DNA of 64,000 nt from NCBI GenBank assembly GCA_041488275.1, contig JBGPOY010000003.1, positions 78,092 through 142,091 on the forward strand, given 5' to 3'. A program made the translations under genes and the position numbers. Positions 38,998-53,863 of this stretch are shown here, one piece after another. The notes below the pieces were generated by a model that ran no database searches, was not told where the DNA came from, and saw only the letters and a list, made by a program, of their open reading frames with translations. Origin of the DNA: Candidatus Nanoarchaeia archaeon (GTDB lineage: Archaea; Nanobdellota; Nanobdellia; Woesearchaeales; ARS49). Each line of letters starts with the position of its first letter. The stretch's first letter is position 1.

Positions 38998-39711
38998 CTA
39001 AAACTTCGTGGGCTTGAGAACTTCCATGCCCTTATCGGTCACTTTGAGCGGCACCGGTCCTTTCTCGTGCTTGGTGCGGCGCATCTTGAGCACGCGGATC
39101 GCGCGATCGCTTTCGCCGCCGATGCCGGCGTTGTGCATCGTGATGACGCTGTCGGCGATGAATTCGACGATGCCGTCCCGTGAAAGCTTGCCGCCGCCGG
39201 AGATGTCGAGCGGCGCCTCGCCCTCGATTTCCGCCGTGAACAGCGTGGTGACGCCGAGTTTCTTGAGCGTGTCGGCGAGAATGTACAATTCCTTGCGCAT
39301 CTTGAAGTAGTTGTACTCGTACATCATCGCAAGTACTGAGATAGAGTCGACGACGAGCACGTCAATCTGTTTTTCCTGAATGAGGTGGACGAACTCCGCC
39401 TGCAAGCCGGGTCCGGTGATGGGTTGGAACGTGATGAACCAGCACTTGCCGTCCTTCTGAAGCTTGCCGAAGTCCCAGCCGAATTCCATGGCGTCGCCGA
39501 CAAGCGCGTCGAGGTTTTCCTCGAATGAGACATAGAGCCCTTTTTTGCCGCGCGCGATGGCGCTGTGCATGAACTGCAGGCAATAAATCGTCTTTCCCGT
39601 TCCGGTGCCTCCCGTGACGAGGTTGACGCTGCCTTCGACAAACCCGCCGTTGCACAGGGCGTCAAAGCCGGGAATGCCGGTCGGGAACCTGTCGTGCTTC
39701 GGTTTGGGCAT
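38998..39711 (-). CDS. Single-domain KaiC-like (RecA-superfamily) ATPase, intact Walker A
   Basis: FPTGIPGFDALCNGGFVEGSVNLVTGGTGTGKT and LVVDSIS (Walker B-like). The start was trimmed to MPKPKHD. Confidence 0.85.
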   Translation of the reverse strand: MPKPKHDRFPTGIPGFDALCNGGFVEGSVNLVTGGTGTGKTIYCLQFMHSAIARGKKGLYVSFEENLDALVGDAMEFGWDFGKLQKDGKCWFITFQPITGPGLQAEFVHLIQEKQIDVLVVDSISVLAMMYEYNYFKMRKELYILADTLKKLGVTTLFTAEIEGEAPLDISGGGKLSRDGIVEFIADSVITMHNAGIGGESDRAIRVLKMRRTKHEKGPVPLKVTDKGMEVLKPTKF

Positions 39712-39773
39712 ACCTCGCTCTCGTTTTGTTTCGTATTTAAGTATGCGTAACTCCTCAATCGTGGAGAACACGT

Positions 39774-39911
39774 GAGCGAAGGTCACCGCTCGCTCGGCCC
39801 GTCGCCCAGAAACGCAAGCTGCCCAAGCCGTTTGGTTCGTCGCAGCGACGGAGAAGCGCCGAGTTCTTGGCCGTCACTGCTGCCTCGCTCGCAGATTGGT
39901 GACCTTCGCTC
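39774..39911. repeat. Perfect 14-nt inverted repeat (GAGCGAAGGTCACC ... GGTGACCTTCGCTC) enclosing 110 nt
   Basis: Arms at 39774-39787 and 39898-39911, in the 268-nt divergent intergenic region. Confidence 0.7.
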
Positions 39912-39931: not shown

Positions 39932-39940
39932 TTTATATAA
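39932..39940 (+). promoter_or_regulatory. TATA box (TTTATATAA) for the V4R-FIST-KaiC operon
   Basis: It lies about 40-48 nt upstream of the ATG at 39980. Confidence 0.5.
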
Positions 39941-39979: not shown

Positions 39980-40465
39980 ATGCTCTCGGCGTTCCTGAAG
40001 AAACTCTTGTTCGCGCGCCAATTGTTCATGACGGACGGCACCATCGAGATTCTGGGAAAAAAGCAGATTATGCTTCCTTCTGACATCATCGTCGCGCTCC
40101 AGAGCCTTGACGAGAAACGCTACTACACGCTCATCAAAGAAGGTGTGAAGACCAGTCTCGGCGATTACGCCCACAAAATCGGCTCCACGAATGAGGGCAT
40201 GATGCGCATCACCGAAGACATTTTCGAGACGTTCGGGATGGGCAAGCCCGAAATCGCGGTGCTCGACCAAAAAAAGCGTTCGGCCGTTGTCCGGTTCCAT
40301 AACCCTCCGGTCGCCGAAGCGTGCGCGGACAACAAGTTCAAGGACTGCGTCCTGCTTCCCGCCGCGCTCGCGGGCATGTTTTCATTCCTGTTTGCAAAAG
40401 ACGTGAACTGCGACCTGACTCAGTGCAACATCAAAGGCGCGGTTTGCGAGTACGTGGTGAAATGA
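39980..40465 (+). CDS. V4R-domain (4-vinyl reductase-type) small-ligand-binding protein
   Basis: LFARQLFMTDGTIEILGKKQIMLPSDIIVAL, with the C-terminal Cys pattern C...CNIKGAVCEYVV typical of V4R. Confidence 0.75.
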   Translation: MLSAFLKKLLFARQLFMTDGTIEILGKKQIMLPSDIIVALQSLDEKRYYTLIKEGVKTSLGDYAHKIGSTNEGMMRITEDIFETFGMGKPEIAVLDQKKRSAVVRFHNPPVAEACADNKFKDCVLLPAALAGMFSFLFAKDVNCDLTQCNIKGAVCEYVVK

Positions 40466-41764
40466 ATGGCAAAAAACATCAATGTGAGCGTCGGCGTGAG
40501 CACCAAAACGGATCCGTACGCCGCGGGCGTCGAAGCCGCGACAGCGTCCTTGAAAGGGCTGCCGAAAACGCCCACGATTTCATACGTCTTTTACGCGGGC
40601 GAGTATGACCCGTATCAATTGAGCAAAGGGCTCTCCGCGGTCCTGCCGAAATCGGAATACGTCGGCGGCAGCGCGGACAGCGTGTTCTTCAACGACCAAA
40701 TCTACAGCACCGGCGTCGTCGTTGTCAGCGTGCAGTCGGATTACCTGCACGTCGGCGTCGCGTCGGCGGACAACGTCAGCAAAGCGCCTCGCAAGCTCGC
40801 GAAGGAAGTCATCAAGCAGGCGCTCCAGAAAGTTCCCATCGACAAATACGTCGACCCGTACCTGATGTTCACGCGCATGAAGGAATCGCCCGTGCACTGG
40901 ATGGTCAAGCTGCCGAGTTTCTTCATCGTCCTGTTCACGCGCGGCATCAAGCTGCCCGTGATGGGCGACGAAAAAGAAATCATCAAGGGCATCAGCGACG
41001 TCACCGGACTGCAAGTTCCGATTTGGGGCGGCAGTTTCGGCACCGACGGCATGAAAGTGCTCCGCGGCGAGAAGTACAACATCACGATGCTGCACTCCGG
41101 CAAGGTCATGCAGGACGGGCTCATCACGCTGTTCAACTCGAGCGCGCTGCTGTACAGCCAAAGCATGGAGAACGGCTGCGTTCCCACCGCGAAAACGGGC
41201 TTCGTCAGCAAAGTCTCCAGCGGCGGTTTTGTCGTCGAGGAAATCTCGAACCAGAACGTCATCGACTGGTACGCGCAGCAGCTGAACCTGCCGCGCGACA
41301 AGTTCCTCAAGGACGTTCGTTTTCTTTCGCAGCTGAACCCGCTCGGAGTTCCCGACCTGTTCGGCGGATTCATCATCCGCGGCGGCGGCATTCCCGCGGG
41401 CAACGGGCTCGCGTACGTCGCTCCTCTGACCGAAGGCTGGCCCGTGTACGTGATGCAGGGCGACGCGAAACACCTGATGAACGCGTCCGACCAAATCAAG
41501 GACGACATCCAGAACTACGTGCAGACCAAGGAAGGGCCGGAGCTCGCGCTCACCACGCTGTGCGTCACGCGCAAGCTCGTCTACCAAAAGGACACCATCA
41601 AGGAAATCAAGAAGCTGCGCAAGAATCTGGGCGCGAAAAACGTGGCGGGATTTGTCTGCTTCGGGGAAACCGGCTCGCGTCCGGGACAGCAGGCGATGTT
41701 CGAGCACGTCACCCTGAACGTGCTGACGCTGTATGACAAACTGATGACCAAGATGAACCAATGA
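40466..41764 (+). CDS. FIST-domain sensor protein (FIST_N + FIST_C)
   Basis: SVGVSTKTDPYAAGVEAA...ISYVFYAGEYDPYQLSKGLSAVLPKSEYVGGSA matches the FIST N-domain pattern. 432 aa. Confidence 0.8.
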   Translation: MAKNINVSVGVSTKTDPYAAGVEAATASLKGLPKTPTISYVFYAGEYDPYQLSKGLSAVLPKSEYVGGSADSVFFNDQIYSTGVVVVSVQSDYLHVGVASADNVSKAPRKLAKEVIKQALQKVPIDKYVDPYLMFTRMKESPVHWMVKLPSFFIVLFTRGIKLPVMGDEKEIIKGISDVTGLQVPIWGGSFGTDGMKVLRGEKYNITMLHSGKVMQDGLITLFNSSALLYSQSMENGCVPTAKTGFVSKVSSGGFVVEEISNQNVIDWYAQQLNLPRDKFLKDVRFLSQLNPLGVPDLFGGFIIRGGGIPAGNGLAYVAPLTEGWPVYVMQGDAKHLMNASDQIKDDIQNYVQTKEGPELALTTLCVTRKLVYQKDTIKEIKKLRKNLGAKNVAGFVCFGETGSRPGQQAMFEHVTLNVLTLYDKLMTKMNQ

Positions 41765-42990
41765 GCACCCTCATCGAGAAAAGGCGCTTTGCGTCGGACT
41801 TCGAGAAGTTCGTGTACGATTGCGAGAGCAAATTCTACCTCAAAGCGGTTGACGTGCCATCGGCGGTTTTCAGTCTTCCCGACTGGAACAACCTGACGCG
41901 CGCCGAAGGCGAACAGTTGATGCTGCCGTACATCCGCAAGAATATCGACCGCGCGATGCGCACGATGCCGGACGTCTACGCCTCGTACGCCCGTCTGGGC
42001 ATCACCGGCGACTCCATCAAAACAATCGAAGATTTTTGGAACCTTCCCGTACTTCCGAAGGACCCGAGCTCCGGCACCAACCTCTCCTTGCGCAACAAGT
42101 TTGAAAAAAACCCGCGCGTCCTGCTGCCGTCCGACCTTTCCGGAGCCGTGGACGCGTATTTTTCCGGCGGCACCAAGGGCAAGCCCGCGCCGACGTGGGT
42201 GACTGAGCACGACCTCGACGTGGAAAGCACGGCGTTCTCGCGCGCGATGGTGACCGGCGGCATCAAACCCTCCAGCACCATCATCAATTGCTACAACCCG
42301 TCGCACAAAGGCGGCGAAGAAGTCCACCGCGCGCTCAAGAGACTGGGCTGCACGTACATCAATGTCAAAACGACCGACAAAGCGCCGGAAATTTTGGGCT
42401 ACATTCAGGATTACAAGGACAAAAACCCGGAACGCGAACTCGTCTTCATCGGCGCGCAGCCGCCCATCAACGACGGCGACAAGCTCCACAAAGGCGGCGG
42501 CCGCACGCTGCTGGACATCGTCAACACCGACGCGGCGACGTTCGAAGACAACGTCGATGTCGTCCTGCTGGGAGGATTCCGCATCATTCCCGAAGTCGAG
42601 CGCTGGGCGCAGGCGTCCGGCAAGCCCGTGTTCACGATTTACGGCGCGACCGAAATCCTGCCCGCGTTTCTCGGCACGGCGCGCGGTCCCGAGAATCGGC
42701 TGTGCACGTACAACAACCTGCACGTGATGCACGGTCCCCACTACGCCGAACTCCTCAAGAACAATGGCGGGCGCTGGATTCCCGCAGAACCCGGCGAGCA
42801 GGGTATTGTCGCGTTCACGAGCGTCTTCCGAGAGGGAACGCTCTACCACCGGTATATCATCGGCGACCAAGCCGTGCTCAAGCACCCTGAAGGCGCGTGC
42901 CCGTGCGGTGTGAAGAGCGAAATTTGGAGCGACATCAAACGCATCGACAACCTCGCAGACCTCATCAAGAGCGGCTGCTGCGCAGACTGA
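41761..42990 (+). CDS. Adenylate-forming enzyme (PaaK / F390-synthetase / LuxE-like)
   Basis: P-loop-like FSGGTKGKP (compare SSGTTGKP). Size and layout are as in PaaK-like ligases. ATGA overlap with the FIST gene. Confidence 0.8.
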   Translation: MSTLIEKRRFASDFEKFVYDCESKFYLKAVDVPSAVFSLPDWNNLTRAEGEQLMLPYIRKNIDRAMRTMPDVYASYARLGITGDSIKTIEDFWNLPVLPKDPSSGTNLSLRNKFEKNPRVLLPSDLSGAVDAYFSGGTKGKPAPTWVTEHDLDVESTAFSRAMVTGGIKPSSTIINCYNPSHKGGEEVHRALKRLGCTYINVKTTDKAPEILGYIQDYKDKNPERELVFIGAQPPINDGDKLHKGGGRTLLDIVNTDAATFEDNVDVVLLGGFRIIPEVERWAQASGKPVFTIYGATEILPAFLGTARGPENRLCTYNNLHVMHGPHYAELLKNNGGRWIPAEPGEQGIVAFTSVFREGTLYHRYIIGDQAVLKHPEGACPCGVKSEIWSDIKRIDNLADLIKSGCCAD

Positions 42991-42991
42991 C

Positions 42992-44518
42992 ATGACCATC
43001 GCAACCCTTCCCGCATTCCAGAACCTCATTCGAGGCAAGTCCGTCTCGATGAGCGGCAGGCAGTTTGAAGCGCGCAGCGCGTTCTTCCCTGACTACGCCG
43101 TGCTTGCGACGGATTCGGATGAGCGCGACCTCGAGCGCGCAATCTCCATGACCAAGCGGGGACAGCAGGAACTCGCAAAGCTCACGTTCGAGGACCGCGA
43201 GCGCATCCTGAAGGACGCAAGTACGCGCCTGAAGTTCGACGACGCGGACATCGCGCACTGCGTGCAGATGATGGGCATGCCGTGGAATTCCGTCAAGGAC
43301 TACATCAAGATGATTCCCTTCCTGATGGACGGGATGCCCGGCACCGTGCGCACCATGATGGATATTATCGACGGCGTTCCCGGGTACACGCACCCCGCCA
43401 TTCCGGGCGTTGAGCTGAAAGTGCCGCACGACGGATTCGTGTACGGCGTGATTCCGAGCAACGACCCGCGCGCGACGCTGTTCGTTTTCTCTTTCCTCGC
43501 CGTTGCGGGCGTTCCCGCGGTTCTCAAGGTCAGCAAAAATGAGCTGCCGGTCGCGTACAAGGTCGTGCAAGCCGCCCTCGACGCGGGCTACCCGAAGGAA
43601 GCCGTCAGCGTTCTCACGTGGGATACACGCGATACCGACCGAGCAACCGCATTGCACTTCAAACTCGCCAAAGAAGCCGCTCGCACGGTCGCGTTCGGTT
43701 CCGACGACACGATTGACAACCTGCTCCGCTATGAGCGAAAAAACGTCATCGACCCTACGAGACTCGCGCAGTACCAAGGACAGCAGGTGAACCAAACGCT
43801 GATTGATTCGCTGACGGAAAACATCGTCGTTACCGACCTCGAAGGGCGGCTGATGCGGCACACGTCCGGCAACTGCGCGATGATTGTCACCGAAAGTGCC
43901 GACCCTCTCAAGGCGGCAGAACTCATCATGCAGTCTGCGTATCATTATCCCATCAGCTGCAAGTCGCTGAAAGCGCTCTACGCTGTCGGCGCGGCGCACG
44001 ACGTCCTGCTGAAAGTGCTTCCTGACCGCGTGAAGGGTTTGCTCGTCGGCAATCCGATGACGCCCGGCGTTGAAGTCGGCTACGTCGACAAGGAACTCCT
44101 CGACCAGACGCTGCCGCGCATGCAGGAACTCAAAGGGCTCGGACACGCGGACATCCTCGCGGGCGGCGACCGCGCGGGACCGTATCTGGCAAGCCCGCTC
44201 CTCGTCGCGGCGCACAACCCGACGTCCGACGGACTGCTCAACGAGCACTCAATGTACTTGTGCACGATGCGCCGCTGCGATTCGCTTGCGCAGGCAGTCG
44301 ACGAATGCAATCTCGCGGCGACAAAACAGCCGCGCCTGTCCGTCAGCGTCGTGACCGGCGACTCGCCCCAAGCGCGCGCCGAAGCGCGGCAGTACGAAAC
44401 GCGCATCAAGGCGGACCTCGTCCACGTCAACCAAGTCACGAATTTCCTGCACGGCGCCATTCATCAGGGCTATAACTACGTGCACGCTCTGTGCCGGACG
44501 CGGAGCGTACGGCGATGA
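42992..44518 (+). CDS. Aldehyde-dehydrogenase-superfamily protein (LuxC-like acyl-CoA/acyl-enzyme reductase candidate)
   Basis: 508 aa with ALDH-like segments (AGVPAVLKVS; candidate catalytic Cys in HTSGNCAMIV). It is paired with the adenylate-forming enzyme. Confidence 0.7.
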   Translation: MTIATLPAFQNLIRGKSVSMSGRQFEARSAFFPDYAVLATDSDERDLERAISMTKRGQQELAKLTFEDRERILKDASTRLKFDDADIAHCVQMMGMPWNSVKDYIKMIPFLMDGMPGTVRTMMDIIDGVPGYTHPAIPGVELKVPHDGFVYGVIPSNDPRATLFVFSFLAVAGVPAVLKVSKNELPVAYKVVQAALDAGYPKEAVSVLTWDTRDTDRATALHFKLAKEAARTVAFGSDDTIDNLLRYERKNVIDPTRLAQYQGQQVNQTLIDSLTENIVVTDLEGRLMRHTSGNCAMIVTESADPLKAAELIMQSAYHYPISCKSLKALYAVGAAHDVLLKVLPDRVKGLLVGNPMTPGVEVGYVDKELLDQTLPRMQELKGLGHADILAGGDRAGPYLASPLLVAAHNPTSDGLLNEHSMYLCTMRRCDSLAQAVDECNLAATKQPRLSVSVVTGDSPQARAEARQYETRIKADLVHVNQVTNFLHGAIHQGYNYVHALCRTRSVRR

Positions 44519-44979
44519 AGACCAAGCACCTCTTCGTCCCGCTGCTGGACGTCGGCGAAGTGCTGCCGTTCGCGGTGCGCAAGACCGAAACGCTGCAGGA
44601 AAGTTTCACCGAACAGGACCGCGCCAAACAGGCGCTCGTCAAGTTCGTGGACCAGCTGGAGCGCAAGCTCAAACAAAAAGTGTATTATATGGGTCTCGAC
44701 GTTATCGGTGAAAAAGCCTATGAACGGTTCATTTTTGACAAAGGAGGGTTCCTCGAAGTGATGGTGGAGAGTCCGGTCGCGCTGAACGCGCATTTCGTGC
44801 ATGAACTGCAGGCAAAAGCGTTTGCCAAGGCGCTGAAACTCGCGCTCACGGGCGCGCTGCCGAAGAGTCCGACCTCACAGCTGCTCATCGACAGCGTCGA
44901 AGTCCAGAACCAGGACGACACGAGTCTCACGGTCGAGAAATGGCACAAGCTCAAGGACATCCGCGAGGGAACCGCATGA
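44515..44979 (+). CDS. Hypothetical protein (154 aa)
   Basis: ATGA overlaps at both ends (44515 and 44976). No recognisable motif. Confidence 0.7.
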   Translation: MKTKHLFVPLLDVGEVLPFAVRKTETLQESFTEQDRAKQALVKFVDQLERKLKQKVYYMGLDVIGEKAYERFIFDKGGFLEVMVESPVALNAHFVHELQAKAFAKALKLALTGALPKSPTSQLLIDSVEVQNQDDTSLTVEKWHKLKDIREGTA

Positions 44980-45773
44980 ACATCACCCGCGTCAAGTCAG
45001 GCATCAGGGGTTTCGACGAGCTTGTCCAAGGCGGCATCCCGCAGGGCAGCAGCGTCGTCGTGTGCGGCACGCCCGGCACGGGTAAGACCATCTTCGCGCT
45101 CGAATTCCTGTTCCGCGGCGCCACCGAGTTCAACGACAAGTGCCTCTACGTCACGTTCGAGCAGACCGTCGACGCGCTCAAACAGCAGGCGTCGATGTTC
45201 GGCTGGAACCTCGAGCCGCTGCTGAAGAGCAAGAAGCTCGAAATCTGGAGCATCCCGATTGACGACCTCGACCACACGGTCGGCGACACGATTCTCGGCT
45301 ACGTCAAGACGAAGAACATCAAGCGCCTCGTCGTCGACTCGCTTTCGACGCTGGCCATCAACGCGCCGATTTACCAGCCGGTCAAGGACATCGCGCTGGT
45401 CGACATCATGAAGCAGAAGTCGTTCTTCTCGCCGCCGATTCTCGGCGACATCATCGTCCGCAGGTACATTTATTCGCTCGTCAACGAACTGCAGCACGTG
45501 AAACACTGCACGACCCTGCTCATCTCGGAGGGGACGAACGGCGGCGAATACCTGACCCGCGATACGGTCTCGGAATTCGCGAGCGACGGCATCGTCCACC
45601 TCGCGTTCGAGAGCGTCGCGTCAGGATACGCGAGAAGCATCACCGTGCGCAAACTGCGCGAAACGAAAAACGATCCCAACACGCACCCGCTGGAAATCGC
45701 AAAGACGGGAGTCGTGGTGCACAGCATCGTGCGCCAATACGGCGAACCCGACCGTGACGGCGTGTACCGCTAG
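44976..45773 (+). CDS. Single-domain KaiC-like ATPase, intact Walker A
   Basis: VKSGIRGFDELVQGGIPQGSSVVVCGTPGTGKT and LVVDSLS motifs. Confidence 0.9.
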   Translation: MNITRVKSGIRGFDELVQGGIPQGSSVVVCGTPGTGKTIFALEFLFRGATEFNDKCLYVTFEQTVDALKQQASMFGWNLEPLLKSKKLEIWSIPIDDLDHTVGDTILGYVKTKNIKRLVVDSLSTLAINAPIYQPVKDIALVDIMKQKSFFSPPILGDIIVRRYIYSLVNELQHVKHCTTLLISEGTNGGEYLTRDTVSEFASDGIVHLAFESVASGYARSITVRKLRETKNDPNTHPLEIAKTGVVVHSIVRQYGEPDRDGVYR

Positions 45774-45782
45774 GAGGAAACA

Positions 45783-46220
45783 ATGGCAACATTTACCGAA
45801 TTTTTCCGTGACCTGCACCAAGAAATGCAGTACCAACCCAGTAACGCAGTGTTCCTGTACGTCGTGGGCAAGAATCTCGCAAAGCGCAACAAAAACACCC
45901 TGCTGCAGGGCATCCGCCAAGTGGAGACGAACCGCGACATCGCGAAATTCATCTCGCACTTCAAGAAAAGCGGCATCGGCACGCTGAAACTCGTCTCTGC
46001 GGACCCGCGCAAGAAGGAATTCTACTTCGAGCTCAAGAACTCCGTGTTCAAGACCGGACTGAAGCGCCCGAGCTGCAGCGTCGTCGGGGGAATGCTCGCC
46101 AGTCTCGTCGAAGAAACGTACGGGTTCTACGCCGGCGCTCTCGAGACGGCGTGCGTCAGTCAAGGCGACCGGCAGTGCGAATTCAAGGTCAAGATTGTCG
46201 GCAAGGAGCCGCTGAGGTGA
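45783..46220 (+). CDS. V4R-domain protein (second copy)
   Basis: The C-terminus SCSVVGGMLASLVEETYG...ETACVSQGDRQCEFKV is a V4R hallmark. Confidence 0.75.
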   Translation: MATFTEFFRDLHQEMQYQPSNAVFLYVVGKNLAKRNKNTLLQGIRQVETNRDIAKFISHFKKSGIGTLKLVSADPRKKEFYFELKNSVFKTGLKRPSCSVVGGMLASLVEETYGFYAGALETACVSQGDRQCEFKVKIVGKEPLR

Positions 46221-46224
46221 ACCG

Positions 46225-46890
46225 ATGACCATCAAGACCGGCTGCGCGGCCGTCGACCGCATTCTCAACGGCAAACTGCCCGACAAGACCGTCGTGCTCA
46301 TCGAGCGCGACACCGGCATGAAGGACAGCCTCGAGCGTTTGTTCCTCCACAACAGCGTGAAGGCGAAAAACGGCGTCGGGTATTACGCGTTCTTCAACCA
46401 AACGAACAAGGATATCGAGAGCGCGTTCAAGGACCAGGGGCTGGACGTCACGCGCGAGATGAACGAGAAGCGCCTGTACTGGATTGACGAGAGCAACCAT
46501 TCCGAGGGCGAGAACGCCATCAACTGCAAGATTGACGAGCTGTTCACGGTCGAACTGGCGATGCTCCAGCTGCTCGAGAGCAACAAGGACAAGAAAATCC
46601 GCGGCGTCGTGCACCTGCTGACGCCGGCGCTCATCGCGAACGAGCCCGTATTGATTTACCAGTTCTTCTCGTACTTAGTCTCGACGCTGAAGAAGTACAA
46701 CACGCTGACCATCTTTCTCATCGAGCAGAATTTGCACGATGCAACCACCCTCAAGGCGATTGAGGGGCTGTGCGACGTCGTGCTGGAGACCAAGCTCGCG
46801 CAGGAAGACTTTGTCGTCAAGACGCTCGTGCGCGTCAAGAAGATGAAAGGCAACTCCGACACCAAGTTCCACGCGCTCCACGTTGCGTGA
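46225..46890 (+). CDS. KaiC-fold paralogue lacking the P-loop (predicted inactive)
   Basis: IKTGCAAVDRILNGKLPDKTVVLIERDTGMKDS aligns with the KaiC N-terminus, but GxxGxGKT is replaced by ERDTGMKD. Confidence 0.7.
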   Translation: MTIKTGCAAVDRILNGKLPDKTVVLIERDTGMKDSLERLFLHNSVKAKNGVGYYAFFNQTNKDIESAFKDQGLDVTREMNEKRLYWIDESNHSEGENAINCKIDELFTVELAMLQLLESNKDKKIRGVVHLLTPALIANEPVLIYQFFSYLVSTLKKYNTLTIFLIEQNLHDATTLKAIEGLCDVVLETKLAQEDFVVKTLVRVKKMKGNSDTKFHALHVA

Positions 46891-46893
46891 GCC

Positions 46894-47475
46894 ATGGCCG
46901 TAAGTCTCCGCGCCGAACTGAGAAGTCTTCCCGAGAACTACATGGTTCTGCTGATTCTCAATGTCAAGCAGTACTTTGAAGGCGTCATTGAAGTGCTCCG
47001 AATGCTGTGCAACGAGGAAAACCTTCCGGGAATCTACATCACGGTGAACAAGCCGTACGGCACGATGAAGGAACTGCTGCGCGACCGGGGCGTCAACACC
47101 TCCCGCATCTTTTTCATCGACGCCATCAGCCAGACCGTGACGCAGCCGAAGCTCACGAACCATCAGGTCATTTATCTCCCGAACCCGCAATCGCTCACGG
47201 ACCTATCGCTCGCGCTCAATGCCGCCGCGACCGCGCTCGAAGGCAGCAAGAAATTCCTGTTCATGGACTCGCTGTCGACGCTGCTGATTTACAACGAGAC
47301 CGAAAGCGTCGCCAAGTTCGCGCACTTTCTCACCATCAAGATGCGCTCGCTGAACATCAAGGGAGTGCTCATCGCGCTCCGCCAGATGCTGGACGAAGAG
47401 CTGATTTTTGAGGTTGCGCAATACTGCGACCGCGTCATCGACCTTTCTTCCGAAGTTATTGAGCTTGACCGCTAG
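46894..47475 (+). CDS. P-loop-less RecA/KaiC-like paralogue (family shared with 53951 and 54547)
   Basis: GIYITVNKPY...RIFFIDAIS...LTDLSLAL...FLFMDSLSTLLIYN are shared with the two downstream paralogues. Confidence 0.7.
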   Translation: MAVSLRAELRSLPENYMVLLILNVKQYFEGVIEVLRMLCNEENLPGIYITVNKPYGTMKELLRDRGVNTSRIFFIDAISQTVTQPKLTNHQVIYLPNPQSLTDLSLALNAAATALEGSKKFLFMDSLSTLLIYNETESVAKFAHFLTIKMRSLNIKGVLIALRQMLDEELIFEVAQYCDRVIDLSSEVIELDR

Positions 47476-50296: not shown

Positions 50297-50560
50297 ATGG
50301 GTCTGCTGAAGAAAGCTGAACTGCAAAGTACGAAGGGTGCGGGAGTACGAGACGACCGCGTTGAGACCGACATCGACCGGCTGTACGCGCTCGTGCTCGA
50401 GAAAGCGCCGCTGAAGCTCGGAGCCGCCGCCGTGTTGCTCGGCAAGCGCCGCGAACTCGTCGAGGACTGGGCGCGCACGCTCGAAGCCGCGTCGCTCATC
50501 AAAATCCACTACCCCGCCGTCGGGGAGCCTGAGCTGGAGCATCCGAATGGACGTCGTTGA
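50297..50560 (+). CDS. Small hypothetical protein (possible wHTH), N-terminal GLLKKAE motif
   Basis: 87 aa. Overlaps the ATPase gene by 14 nt. Confidence 0.55.
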   Translation: MGLLKKAELQSTKGAGVRDDRVETDIDRLYALVLEKAPLKLGAAAVLLGKRRELVEDWARTLEAASLIKIHYPAVGEPELEHPNGRR

Positions 50561-52043
50561 GGAATATCTCGTTTCCGCCGAGGGCGCGACCGCGAACGTC
50601 ACGATTCGCGGAGAAGGAACCACCGCGCGCACGTACGACGTCTCCATTCCGCGCATCGCCGCGGGAACGCAGGCATTGCTGGAGGACATCAAGCGCCAGC
50701 TCGCCGCGACGCTGAGCGTCAGTCCGGCGGAACTGCTCGACAACAACGCGGTCGCCTCGCTCAAACAGAAAGTCGCGATGGACGCGCGCACCATGCTCAC
50801 GGCGCGATTGCCCGAAACGCAGGAGCAGCTGCGCGATTTGCTCGTTACTTCAATTCTCAACAGCACGCTCGGCTTGGGCGACATCGAATACCTGCTCAAC
50901 GACCCCGTGCTGGAAGAAATCGTCATCCCCTCGGCAAACGCCCGCGTGCGCGTCTACCACAAAAAGCACGGCTGGCTGGAAACCAATGTTGTCGTCTCGA
51001 GCGAGCAGCAGGTGCAGAACTACGCGAGCATCATCGCCCGAAGAGTAGGCAAGCAAGTCACGACGCTCACGCCGCTGCTTGACGCTGCGCTCACGACCGG
51101 AGACCGCGCGAACGCCGTGCTCTATCCCATCTCGAGCAAGGGCAACACCATTACCATCAGAAAGTTCGCGCGCGAGCCGTGGACGATTGTCGACCTCGTC
51201 ACCAACGGCACGATTTCGTCCGGCGTCGCCGCCCTCCTGTGGACCGCGATTCAGTACGAAATGAACATTCTTGTCTCGGGCGGCACGGCGTCGGGAAAAA
51301 CGTCGCTGCTCAACGTCATGCTCGCGTTCATGCCGCCCAACCACCGTATCCTGAGCATCGAGGACACGCGCGAACTGCAGCTGCCCGACCATCTGTTCTG
51401 GGCGCCGCTCACGACACGCGCGCCCGGTCCGGAAGGCGAGGGCGAAGTCACGATGCTCGACCTGCTCGTCAACGCGCTGCGTATGCGCCCCGACCGCATT
51501 GTCCTCGGAGAAGTGCGCCGCCAGCGCGACGCGGAAGTGATGTTCGAGGCGATGCATACCGGCCACTCGGTATACGCGACCGTCCACGCGGACTCGGCGC
51601 AGGAGACCATTCGCCGGCTCGTGTTCCCGCCCATCAGCGTGCCGCCGAACCTCCTGCAGGCGGTGAACCTCAACGTCGTGATGTTCCGCGACCGCCGCAG
51701 GGGAATCCGCCGCGTCTCGCAGGTCGCCGAATTCGTGACGGCGGAAGAAGGCGAACGCGTCACGGTCAAGCCGAACGTCATTTACCGCTGGCTTCCGGAC
51801 GAGGACACCATCGTTCCGTTCAACAACAGCCTCCGCTTCTTCGAAGACCTGTCGCGGCACACCGGACTCACGCAGGACGACATCACCGCCAACGTGATGG
51901 ACCGCAAGGCGGTGCTTGACTGGCTCGTGCAGACGAAACAGCGCGACCTCGCGTCCGTCGGGAGAATCATGCAGGAATTCGCGCTCGACCCCGCCAAGGT
52001 CATCAGGCAGGCGCGCACCGCGCTGAAGCGTTCCGAGGGATAA
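50547..52043 (+). CDS. Type IV pilus/archaellum-type assembly ATPase (FlaI/ArlI/PilB, GspE-VirB11 superfamily)
   Basis: Walker A VSGGTASGKTS, SIEDTRELQL, RPDRIVLGEVR and HTGHSVYATVHA motifs. Confidence 0.95.
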   Translation: MDVVEEYLVSAEGATANVTIRGEGTTARTYDVSIPRIAAGTQALLEDIKRQLAATLSVSPAELLDNNAVASLKQKVAMDARTMLTARLPETQEQLRDLLVTSILNSTLGLGDIEYLLNDPVLEEIVIPSANARVRVYHKKHGWLETNVVVSSEQQVQNYASIIARRVGKQVTTLTPLLDAALTTGDRANAVLYPISSKGNTITIRKFAREPWTIVDLVTNGTISSGVAALLWTAIQYEMNILVSGGTASGKTSLLNVMLAFMPPNHRILSIEDTRELQLPDHLFWAPLTTRAPGPEGEGEVTMLDLLVNALRMRPDRIVLGEVRRQRDAEVMFEAMHTGHSVYATVHADSAQETIRRLVFPPISVPPNLLQAVNLNVVMFRDRRRGIRRVSQVAEFVTAEEGERVTVKPNVIYRWLPDEDTIVPFNNSLRFFEDLSRHTGLTQDDITANVMDRKAVLDWLVQTKQRDLASVGRIMQEFALDPAKVIRQARTALKRSEG

Positions 52044-52925
52044 ATGCGGCTTCCCGTGACGCTGCTCCCGGGGCTGGCGCTCCACCGCATTACCACCCCG
52101 CTCACGGGCGTCGCGAGCGGTCTTGAAATCGCGTTTCCTTTTCTGAAGCTGCATTTGCGGCACGCGGACATCAAAATGAGTTCCGCGGAATATCTCGCGG
52201 CAAACATCGTGTCCAGCGCGGTTTTCGGCGCTGCGGTATTCGCAATCGCGCTGTTCGTCACCTTGACTGCAGGTCTCACTCCGCCCCTGCTCATTTCCCT
52301 CGGCGCGGGGTTGATTATCGCGGTGCTGGTCTGGTTCCAGAATCTGCTCGTTCCGAAAGCGCTCATCGCGAAGAAAGTTTCGAGCCTCGAACGCAACCTG
52401 ATTCCCGCGCTGAGCGACATGCTCGTGCAGCTGCACTCCGGCATTCCGCTGTTCGACATTCTCGTCAACATCGCGAACGGCGATTACGGCGCGGTGTCCA
52501 CGGAGTTCAAGCGCGCCGTGCGCCGCATCTCGTCGGGAGAAAGCCAGGTGTCCGTGCTTGAAGAACTCGCTACGGGAAACCCGAGCGTGTTTTTCCGACG
52601 CCTCCTTTCCCAAGTCGTCAACGCGCTGAAAACAGGAGCAAGCATCAGTTCCGTCCTGACGGACGGCATCACGCGGCTGAGCGATGAACAGGTCATTCAA
52701 ATCCAGAAGTACGGCGGCTACCTCAACAGTCTGACGATGTTTTACCTGATGACCGCGGTCATCGCGCCCGCGCTGCTGATGACCGGCGCGGTTGTCCTGT
52801 CGTTCTTCTTTTCCGTGACGCCGTTCTGGACCGCCATCGGATTTGTCGTCATTTACTTCATGGTCGTCTTCATCCAGGTCGCGTTCCTCGGCATGCTGCG
52901 CACGCGGAGGCCGAACCTGCTGTGA
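52044..52925 (+). CDS. T2SS-F-domain platform protein, first half (TadB/FlaJ-like)
   Basis: 293 aa with 3-4 TM helices flanking a cytoplasmic helical domain (LIPALSDMLVQLHSGIPLFDIL). Confidence 0.85.
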   Translation: MRLPVTLLPGLALHRITTPLTGVASGLEIAFPFLKLHLRHADIKMSSAEYLAANIVSSAVFGAAVFAIALFVTLTAGLTPPLLISLGAGLIIAVLVWFQNLLVPKALIAKKVSSLERNLIPALSDMLVQLHSGIPLFDILVNIANGDYGAVSTEFKRAVRRISSGESQVSVLEELATGNPSVFFRRLLSQVVNALKTGASISSVLTDGITRLSDEQVIQIQKYGGYLNSLTMFYLMTAVIAPALLMTGAVVLSFFFSVTPFWTAIGFVVIYFMVVFIQVAFLGMLRTRRPNLL

Positions 52926-53863
52926 GACCGCACGGACTCCGCGCACGGTTTGCGATGGCGTTAGATCACGCAGGGTTGCGCGTGCGCGTCGGAAGGTTCC
53001 TCGGCACCACCGCGATGCTGTCGCTGGTCGCGGGAATTATCGTCGGGATGGTTGCAGCGCTGCTCGGGCAGAGCGGCTGGCTGTTTGGGGTGGGCGCGTT
53101 TGTGCTCGGGGAAATCGGCTGGGCGTTCTGGCTCGTGCTCCGCGCGGACGCGAAATCCCAGTTCATTGAAAGCGTGCTTCCCGACGCGATGGACCTGATG
53201 GCCGCGAATTTGCGCGCCGGACTGACGACCGACCGCGCGTTGCTGCTCGCCTCCCGGCCGGAATTCGGACCGCTACAGGAAGAGCTCGACCGCGCCGGGC
53301 GCGAAATCGCGCTGGGGAGAAGCGTTCCGGACGCGCTCGCCGCCCTCGGCGCGCGCATTTCCTCGGAGCGCGTGCGCAAGACGCTCGCCCTCATCATTTC
53401 CGGGCTGCGCTCGGGCGGCAGGCTCGCGGAACTGCTGTCGCAGGCGTCGCTCGCGCTCAAACAGCAGACGGTCGTGGAGCGCAAAGTCGCGAGTACCGTG
53501 ACCGTCTACGTGATTTTCATTTTCACCGCGGTCGTGCTGGGCGCGCCGTTTTTGTTTGCCGTGAGCGCGTTCCTGACCGAAACGCTTTCGGGAATTATCG
53601 GGAACATTGACATCAGCGACGTGCCTACGGGATTTCTTCCCGGAGTGACGCCCGGCGCGGGGCTTCCGCTCGAAGCGGTCACGATTCTTGCGGTCGCGCT
53701 GCTGCTCACCATCGGACTGGTCTCCTGCTTGGTCGCCGGACAAATCGGGACGGGCAGAATGCGATCCGGTGTCAAATACGCGCCGTTGGTGCTGCTCAAT
53801 GTCGCGCTGTTCTTCCTCATTCGCTGGGGGCTGAAGGCGGGATTGGGCGTCCTTTTCGGGTAA
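52922..53863 (+). CDS. T2SS-F-domain platform protein, second half (TadC/FlaJ-like)
   Basis: 313 aa with LPDAMDLMAANLRAGLTTDRAL. GTG start overlapping the upstream stop. Confidence 0.85.
   Translation: MRPHGLRARFAMALDHAGLRVRVGRFLGTTAMLSLVAGIIVGMVAALLGQSGWLFGVGAFVLGEIGWAFWLVLRADAKSQFIESVLPDAMDLMAANLRAGLTTDRALLLASRPEFGPLQEELDRAGREIALGRSVPDALAALGARISSERVRKTLALIISGLRSGGRLAELLSQASLALKQQTVVERKVASTVTVYVIFIFTAVVLGAPFLFAVSAFLTETLSGIIGNIDISDVPTGFLPGVTPGAGLPLEAVTILAVALLLTIGLVSCLVAGQIGTGRMRSGVKYAPLVLLNVALFFLIRWGLKAGLGVLFG

Follow-up and report, generated by a model that had tools for sequence, protein, structure and literature searches.

A candidate CoA-independent carboxylic acid reductase of LuxE/LuxC-like design in a signalling gene cluster of DPANN archaea

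Introduction

The reduction of a carboxylic acid to an aldehyde without coenzyme A (CoA) or a phosphopantetheine carrier is, to our knowledge, rare, and its textbook case, the LuxE/LuxC pair, is confined to bioluminescence. Here we analyse two adjacent genes that may encode a reductase of this design in a Candidatus Nanoarchaeia archaeon (GenBank assembly GCA_041488275.1). They lie on the plus strand of a 64,000-nucleotide stretch of contig JBGPOY010000003.1 (positions 78,092 to 142,091), hereafter the window, and coordinates below refer to this window unless a locus identifier precedes them. The first gene (41761-42990) encodes a truncated, PaaK-like adenylate-forming enzyme of 409 residues with a cysteine tail and the architecture of LuxE, referred to as the ligase; the second (42992-44518) encodes a 508-residue protein of aldehyde dehydrogenase (ALDH) fold that lacks the hydrolytic glutamate and is a proposed thioester reductase, referred to as the ALDH. 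Both open reading frames exist as called in an earlier reading of the DNA letters (the original prediction), which had proposed that a LuxE-like activating enzyme and a LuxC-like aldehyde-making reductase are tied to signalling at this locus. That proposal draws support from the architecture of the two proteins, from a partner that has the catalytic cysteine without the glutamate, and from linkage to FIST, V4R and KaiC genes, and we consider that the pair is probably, though far from certainly, a two-protein, CoA-independent carboxylic acid reductase built on the LuxE/LuxC plan.

The closest described system is that of luminous bacteria. LuxE has no C-terminal subdomain and instead carries a tail of about 20 amino acids with the motif TRxxKGCxLS, in which Cys364 takes over the acyl group of the adenylate. 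LuxE also depends on a pair of residues, Lys238 and Arg355, the latter nine residues before Cys364; both the tail and the 234-246 loop that holds Lys238 move during catalysis (PMC9157457). Cryo-electron microscopy of the LuxC-LuxE complex indicates that the acyl group then goes from LuxE to Cys296 of LuxC, which is without the two glutamates and the asparagine, a feature offered as the reason that acyl-LuxC is not hydrolysed (PMC9157457). With regard to genomic setting, the concept of archaeal KaiC hubs (Makarova, Galperin and Koonin 2017, as cited in PMC5847659) joins single-domain and inactivated paralogues of KaiC with V4R and other sensor-type domains; as cited there, it does not include an enzymatic acid-reductase core.

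Other enzymes invite comparison at the level of chemistry. Carboxylic acid reductases (CAR) and the alpha-aminoadipate reductase Lys2 follow a logic of ANL adenylation, capture of the acyl group as a thioester on a swinging thiol and reduction by NADPH to the aldehyde, but they are single polypeptides that use a phosphopantetheinyl carrier domain and a reductase of the short-chain dehydrogenase/reductase type rather than a cysteine tail and an ALDH fold. ProA, a member of the ALDH superfamily, acts on an activated carboxyl group, which it reduces by way of a cysteine thioester. Our literature searches, which did not extend to the KaiC-hub survey of Makarova, Galperin and Koonin (2017), found no paper on the gene combination described here. 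If the proposed reading is right, the design of the Lux-type reductase occurs here in families that Lux profiles do not see, in archaea, and coupled to signalling proteins. The pair would offer an enzymatic handle on the cues that archaeal KaiC hubs and FIST domains answer to and on whether small molecules serve DPANN symbionts as signals, and a compact two-protein carboxylate reductase could also serve biocatalysis.

The ligase lacks the ANL lid and has an invariant cysteine in its tail

The ligase has the fold of PaaK-type enzymes (Foldseek E 6.6e-16) and matches BT_0428 (PDB 4r1l) at the sequence level with a phmmer E-value of 2.4e-08. With PaaK and its relatives, including BT_0428 and 2-hydroxyisobutyryl-CoA ligase (4r1l, 2y27, 6hdw), it has in common the N-domain fold and the P-loop, together with G.TE and GD motifs and a CxCG hinge. 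The P-loop, SGGTKGK (residues 135-141; 42163-42183, plus strand), is present as the original prediction had it (FSGGTKGKP), and its residues S135, G136, G137 and T138 are invariant in the 11 members of the ligase family that we found among 5.8 billion proteins. The resemblance to PaaK-type enzymes is restricted to the N-domains, however. In VIA structure comparisons, residues 10-400 of the ligase model matched 6hdw (Z 27.3) only up to residue 363 of 475, and the match to 4r1l (Z 25.3) ended at residue 332 of 433. The chain terminates about 25-30 residues past the ACPCG hinge, as against 103-137 residues in most full-length relatives, and the whole ANL C-terminal lid, the subdomain of about 100 residues that PaaK uses for CoA thioesterification, is therefore missing. 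The protein also fails every curated equivalog in NCBIfam by a wide margin; its scores against the PaaK equivalogs NF041878 (54.1 bits) and TIGR02155 (43 bits) fall far under the respective cut-offs of 700 and 646.3.

We draw on an exhaustive search of 1.84 billion representatives with a profile of the ligase family, in which 31 clusters passed E < 1e-30 and 164 passed E < 1e-10. The 124 full-length representative matches were classified by tail, and residues were counted by column in 55 short-tailed (tail-Cys) proteins and 61 full-length PaaK-like ones. The cysteine-rich C-terminus noted in the original prediction is real, but it is made up of two distinct elements. ACPCG is the ordinary PaaK hinge, both cysteines of which are present in all 61 full-length PaaK-like proteins. 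The second element, Gly405-Cys406 (42973-42978, plus strand), lies four residues from the C-terminus, is specific to the family and invariant in 11/11 members, and contains the thiol that we propose carries the acyl group. The Cys406 column holds cysteine in 52/55 short-tailed proteins and in 0/61 full-length ones; in the classification by tail, almost every relative with a tail of about 30 residues has a cysteine 4-8 residues from its C-terminus, and none of those with a full 103-137-residue lid does. In the AlphaFold2 model the tail, which ends Gly405-Cys406-x-x-x, is of low confidence (residues 402-409, predicted local distance difference test (pLDDT) below 50).

Further columns separate the two classes. 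Lysine occupies the position of Lys244 (42490-42492, plus strand) in 51/55 short-tailed but only 8/61 full-length proteins; this residue, a candidate stand-in for the missing lid lysine, sits in a loop (236-246) that is likewise modelled with pLDDT below 50. Arg394 (42940-42942, plus strand), 12 residues before the tail cysteine, is arginine in 48/55 short-tailed versus 16/61 full-length sequences. An invariant His182-Lys183 pair replaces the aromatic pocket residue of PaaK-type ligases, with His at the first of these positions in 47/55 short-tailed proteins and in none of the 61 full-length proteins, where aromatic residues predominate. A FastTree phylogeny, quick, without an outgroup and limited to the top 150 matches of the family-derived profile, separated the short-tailed ligases from the full-length PaaK-like enzymes at a branch whose SH-like support is 96-97. 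One short-tailed relative, P0082 (722 amino acids), carries an N-terminal fusion to a small-molecule O-methyltransferase with a dimerisation domain.

The original prediction had asked whether the ligase groups with phenylacetate-CoA ligases of a catabolic pathway encoded elsewhere in the genome, and it does not. A role in phenylacetate catabolism was rejected on the low equivalog scores, the separate clade, the absent lid and a search of the genome, 93.8% complete, in which neither a PaaA/PaaC gene (PF05138) nor a paa pathway was found. The ligase thus departs from PaaK in its missing C-terminal subdomain, its phylogenetic position, the histidine in its pocket and its genomic surroundings.

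The ALDH-fold partner keeps its nucleophile and lacks the hydrolytic glutamate

The original prediction had described the 508-residue partner as having an aldehyde-dehydrogenase-like layout, and this is borne out by a Pfam Aldedh (PF00171) score of 87.5 bits, against a cut-off of 23, and by an AlphaFold2 model (pLDDT 88.5) that matches classical ALDHs over its whole length. VIA matched it to Thermoproteus tenax GAPN (1ky8; Z 39.8, 448 residues aligned, root-mean-square deviation 3.0); the Z score to LuxC (7xc6_A) was 32.8, and those to gamma-glutamyl-phosphate reductases ranged from 24.4 to 20.4. The nucleophile had been placed by the original prediction in the segment HTSGNCAMIV, which is wrong: its cysteine, Cys295, is unconserved in the family and sits in the equivalent of the ELGG motif. 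The nucleophile is instead predicted to be Cys323 (YPISC, within YHYPISC; 43958-43960, plus strand), which aligns with Cys297 of GAPN and with the YPxxC cysteine of the reductases, and which is present in 18/18 partner ALDHs drawn from related and more distant loci.

Since HTSGNCAMIV pairs with ELGGGDPAIV of GAPN in the phmmer alignment, the position of the ALDH general-base glutamate (Glu263 of T. tenax GAPN) falls to His290 (43859-43861, plus strand). Among the 18 partners this position is occupied by His (13), Tyr (2) or Phe (3) and never by Glu, and a histidine is also found at the equivalent position in the yeast and human gamma-glutamyl-phosphate reductases. Asn157 (43460-43462, plus strand) aligns with the PFN motif of GAPN as the equivalent of the oxyanion-hole asparagine and is kept in 17/18 partners; together with Cys323, Lys179 and Glu418 it is invariant in the alignment of the ALDH family. 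The protein thus has the superfamily fold and the equivalents of Cys302 and Asn169 and is without the equivalent of Glu268 that marks hydrolytic ALDHs, and judged by these residues it is a member of the ALDH superfamily but not a hydrolytic ALDH. Absence of the catalytic cysteine and glutamate had been offered by the original prediction as a sign against its proposal. The cysteine is retained (18/18) and the glutamate is lost (0/18), but because loss of the general base supports a reductase rather than refuting one, the check was mis-specified with respect to the glutamate. A side observation concerns residues ~250-285, where an insertion of about 30 residues separates the GS cofactor motif from His290; it is not seen in ordinary ALDHs or in the Woesearchaeota homologue at locus L006.

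When the active-site fragment (residues 282-345) was compared with PDB sequences, the best matches were gamma-glutamyl-phosphate reductases (1vlu, 2h5g, 1o20) and then the acetylating acetaldehyde dehydrogenase 5j78, enzymes that handle thioesters without hydrolysis. The ALDH belongs to the same superfamily as ProA and the P5CS reductase domain and shares with 1vlu and 2h5g the pattern H-x-x-G-x-C ... YP-x-x-C; the alignment to 1o20 starts after the histidine and retains G-x-C ... P-x-x-C. It nonetheless differs from ProA in several respects: the overall structural similarity is lower (Z 24.4 to 20.4), ProA is without the N-terminal oligomerisation elements that the archaeal ALDH has, the score against NCBIfam proA (TIGR00407) is 22.7 bits versus a cut-off of 317, and the archaeal pair would activate its substrate through adenylation rather than with a kinase. 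The ProA-like active site led us to consider a role in proline biosynthesis, with the ligase in place of ProB and the ALDH in place of ProA, but this idea is not supported: a search of the genome gave no ProC, and even genomes of the same genus differ in whether they carry the module.

The match to 5j78 bears on a reading in which the lid-less ligase makes an acyl-CoA and the ALDH is a CoA-acylating enzyme of the EutE, PduP or MSDH type, working in either direction. The hydrolytic glutamate is likewise absent from, or dispensable in, CoA-acylating ALDHs, and every one of the solved structures most closely related to the ligase is that of a CoA ligase. It is, however, the C-terminal subdomain of ANL enzymes that forms the thioester-forming (CoA) conformation, and this subdomain is absent here; moreover, the tail cysteine is specific to the lid-less clade, in which a CoA ligase would have no need of it, and no other acyl-CoA synthetase was found in the genome. 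We regard a CoA-dependent pair as unlikely. The structural data also invite the thought that the ALDH runs oxidatively, converting an aldehyde to an enzyme thioester that is passed on to the ligase tail, or to some other acceptor with a thiol, in aldehyde detoxification or sensing. Its fold and sequence are indeed nearest to ordinary oxidative ALDHs such as GAPN, it keeps Asn157 and Glu418, and His290 could serve as a base. Against this stand the loss of the general-base glutamate in 18/18 partners, an active-site motif that best matches reductive enzymes, and the want of an obvious role for an AMP-forming ligase downstream of oxidation, and we consider the oxidative direction very unlikely.

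A proposed reaction scheme on the LuxE/LuxC plan

Under the reductase reading that we favour, the ligase would bind a carboxylic acid and ATP and form the acyl-adenylate, with Lys244 and Arg394 standing in for the lysine of the missing lid. The acyl group would then be moved to the thiol of Cys406 in the ligase's own flexible tail, which would swing into the ALDH-fold partner and pass the acyl group to Cys323. Reduction of this thioester by hydride from NAD(P)H would release the aldehyde, and we propose that the thioester is spared hydrolysis because His290 replaces the water-activating glutamate. The predicted overall reaction, acid + ATP + NADPH to aldehyde without CoA, is that of LuxE-LuxC (PDB 7XC6). 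Lys182 of the ALDH occupies what we take to be the position of the cofactor-specificity residue Glu195, which makes NADPH the likelier cofactor.

The likeness to LuxE and LuxC is one of design. LuxE and the archaeal ligase both consist of a PaaK-like ANL N-domain without a C-terminal subdomain and a short flexible tail bearing a conserved Gly-Cys, and Lys244 and Arg394 fall at positions similar to Lys238 and Arg355 of LuxE, a correspondence drawn from published positions rather than from direct alignment. LuxC and the archaeal ALDH share the ALDH fold, a cysteine nucleophile and the absence of the hydrolytic glutamate (Glu268), and in both systems the genes of the pair are linked. Unlike LuxC, the archaeal ALDH keeps the asparagine and the second glutamate and lies closer to classical ALDHs (Z 39.8 vs 32.8). 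The setting differs too: the archaeal module is without luxD, luxAB or other light-producing genes, its host is a DPANN archaeon, and its neighbours are FIST, V4R and KaiC genes.

The substrate is probably not myristate, in contrast to LuxE-LuxC. A polar, acidic or amino-acid-derived acid (amino or keto) seems somewhat more likely than a fatty acid, a preference that we hold lightly and that is hinted at by the His182-Lys183 pair, the ProA-like active site, the aminotransferase genes that accompany the pair in one lineage and a prediction concerning FIST, a domain that has reportedly been proposed to bind amino acids.

Several observations weigh against a LuxE/LuxC-type reductase. None of the 11 ligase family members matches Pfam LuxE (PF04443) at E <= 10, nor does anything in a six-frame search of the genome, and a distant short-tailed relative (P0058) comes only to E 0.011, below the cut-off. 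Pfam LuxC (PF05893) gave no match for the window ALDH (P0002); it was matched by only 2/11 family ALDHs, the best with E 8.2e-12, and by the partner of a distant relative (P0066). A search of PDB structures with the ligase-family profile did not retrieve LuxE at E <= 10, and LuxE was likewise missing from the wide list of VIA matches. Because neither the Lux profiles nor the PDB search gives a match, homology to LuxE beyond the PaaK-like ancestry that both share is no more than a possibility, and the loss of the lid and the cysteine in the tail may have arisen by convergence. In addition, retention of the oxyanion asparagine and of the Glu399 equivalent (Glu418) sets the ALDH apart from LuxC, and His290 could act as an alternative base, so that the protein might have an oxidative or thiol-dependent acyl-transfer role. 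The ProA-like matches of the active-site fragment have weak E-values (0.033 to 0.78), and Lys182 is not conserved in more distant partners, so the cofactor call is soft. Co-folding of the ligase and ALDH families gave an ipSAE of 0.36, versus 0.00 for the best control, with runs that agree in at least 84% of contacts and partner pLDDT of at least 82. The mark for a pass was reached by 58/80 solved complexes and 2/110 mismatched pairs, although among scores at or below 0.60 only 7 of the 80 complexes reached it, as did both of the passing mismatched pairs. The pass may also reflect memory, as a similar complex (7XC6) is already solved, and it lends weak support to a modelled ligase-ALDH complex.

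Operon and genome context

The pair occupies the third and fourth positions of nine plus-strand genes that run end to end (39980-47475) and encode V4R, FIST, ligase, ALDH, P5, KaiC, V4R and two degenerate KaiC proteins. ATGA overlaps join FIST to the ligase, the ALDH to P5 and P5 to KaiC, the V4R stop codon abuts the FIST ATG, and the remaining gaps measure 1-9 nt; from this layout, the nine genes are a translationally coupled operon. A TATA-like box, TTTATATAA (39932-39940, plus strand), can be read in the sequence about 40 nt 5' of the first gene and marks a putative promoter. The first gene (39980-40465) encodes a V4R-like small protein of 161 amino acids with a weak Pfam V4R match (E 9.4e-4), orthologues of which, at 38-79% identity, stand beside FIST in six related loci (L001, L005, L006, L008, L013 and L015). 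It is followed by a FIST_N + FIST_C protein of 432 amino acids (40466-41764; Pfam FIST 65 bits, FIST_C 48 bits).

Downstream of the pair lies P5 (44515-44979), a conserved orphan small protein of 154 amino acids whose gene has an ATGA overlap at both ends. P5 has no Pfam family and no Atlas match, and the idea that it is a divergent V4R was ruled out by hhalign (probability 0.3%). Its orthologues (30-78% identity; L001, L003, L005, L006, L008, L011 and L024) were found only with the module, and none of their conserved positions, among those compared, is a cysteine. A single-domain KaiC-like ATPase follows (44976-45773; Pfam KaiC, E 8.4e-52), so that both the FIST and the KaiC neighbours named in the original prediction are confirmed by Pfam. 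The operon ends with a second V4R gene (45783-46220) and two degenerate KaiC-like genes (46225-46890 and 46894-47475), with Pfam matches to V4R, KaiC and DUF7504; these three genes recur in the same order in L008 and L009. Among the KaiC paralogues, the one whose link to the module is most constant is a divergently transcribed KaiC-like ATPase on the minus strand (38998-39786; Pfam KaiC, E 1.8e-52), with orthologues (51-81% identity) adjoining the module in L005, L006, L008, L015 and L017.

Such surroundings, all of signalling type and with degenerate KaiC copies in the operon itself, raise the question of whether the ligase and the ALDH are enzymes at all, or instead non-catalytic, ligand-binding sensor subunits of a KaiC hub. 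We give this a very slight chance: the adenylation motifs (SGGT.G, G.TE, GD, Lys244 and Arg394) and the thioester residues (Cys406, Cys323 and Asn157) are invariant, unlike those of a dead enzyme.

The genome assembly measures 917 kb, and the host, an archaeon with a genome of 0.9 Mb, has almost no metabolism of its own. The pair provides its only ALDH-superfamily gene, its only ligase of this family and its only ANL enzyme: a search of the 93.8% complete genome found no other AMP-binding enzyme or ALDH and no PaaA/PaaC, LuxE, LuxC or ProC. The absence of PaaA/C and ProC from these searches makes roles in phenylacetate catabolism or simple proline synthesis unlikely.

The pair forms the enzymatic core of a module with FIST and V4R, both proteins of ligand-binding type, and with P5 and KaiC-like ATPases, and in one lineage its ALDH is fused to a receiver domain. 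For this reason the aldehyde or its product is probably no bulk metabolite but a compound whose formation or consumption is governed by signalling. A bolder proposal, to which we assign a small chance, is that the module is a self-contained DPANN small-molecule signalling circuit. The pair would make an aldehyde or, through lineage-specific aminotransferases or ApbA-type reductases, a derived amine or alcohol; synthesis would be under KaiC or two-component control; FIST and V4R would be the sensors of this molecule or of its precursor; and the output would go to surface structures, for example the neighbouring type IV pili, with which these symbionts attach to hosts. If true, this circuit would be an archaeal chemical signal system with a new kind of cofactor-free carboxylate reductase as its synthase.

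The window also encodes homologues of FtsZ and SecE and holds a type IV filament locus. The latter, with a T2SSE ATPase gene and two T2SSF platform genes, lies at 50547-53863, about 3 kb downstream of the operon; no pilus genes stand beside the module in the other loci examined, and their adjacency here may be local.

Distribution and lineage-specific variants

The module is found in metagenome-assembled genomes (MAGs) labelled Woesearchaeota/Nanoarchaeia, Aenigmatarchaeota, Micrarchaeota and Altiarchaeales, with the closest relatives in the Woesearchaeota/Nanoarchaeia MAGs. Among sampled genomes of the phylum, 8/401 have a match at E <= 1e-10 and only two of these are close orthologues; within the genus the count is 2/5, the window genome included. 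Five of the six weaker genome matches were inspected, of which four proved to be trios of FIST, a ligase with the tail cysteine and an ALDH, and the fifth is locus L024.

In almost all related loci the ligase and ALDH genes are neighbours or have a single gene between them; an exception is L012, where the ALDH lies nearby on the opposite strand. FIST immediately precedes the ligase in most of these loci and is present in every locus except L014, and most clusters also include V4R, P5 and one or two KaiC-like ATPases. L014 itself (DATDRQ010000039.1), binned as Anaerolineales, has the ligase and the ALDH without detectable FIST, V4R, P5 or KaiC, and may be mis-binned or represent a transfer of the pair alone.

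FIST, V4R and P5 are linked to the ligase as tightly as the ALDH is, and in L024 the genes for V4R, ligase, P5 and FIST occur in a different order with no ALDH seen within the stretch examined. V4R, moreover, has a relative in the Bet3 family, whose members bind acyl chains. These observations could be taken to mean that the pair belongs to a protein or cofactor acylation system, in which the tail cysteine passes the acyl group to FIST, V4R, P5, KaiC or a small thiol and the ALDH is a regulator or editor that, for instance, clears mis-loaded thioesters reductively. We think this quite unlikely, given that the ALDH is adjacent in almost every locus, that its nucleophile is intact in 18/18 partners, that P5 is without a conserved cysteine and that no acceptor site was identified.

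Five ALDHs of the family (P0018-P0022) carry at the C-terminus a receiver domain whose acidic pocket is of the usual kind. In the two contigs with a receiver-fused ALDH that were examined, the gene order is V4R-FIST-ligase-ALDH::REC, where REC denotes the receiver domain, and in the longer one (L031:4639-6600) a convergent gene for a 476-residue HATPase_c protein, likely a histidine kinase, takes the usual place of KaiC. In a Nanoarchaeia MAG (L001:10735-12862), the ALDH gene is immediately followed by two genes for class IV aminotransferases (BCAT / D-amino-acid type), which suggests, as far as gene order can, transamination of the aldehyde or of its precursor in this lineage. At a more distant locus (L033:8609-11443), KaiC, FIST, ligase and ALDH genes are accompanied by an ApbA/PanE-type reductase and a 532-residue protein of PF27054 (Beta_methylindole_red_C), followed by V4R and a second FIST. 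The receiver, aminotransferase, ApbA and O-methyltransferase variants point to a small-molecule pathway with lineage-specific tailoring on interchangeable signalling hardware. The core itself can also be interrupted: at L003:9194-10171 a gene for a 325-residue protein with no Pfam family separates the ligase from the ALDH, and the positions of P5 and V4R around the core are swapped.

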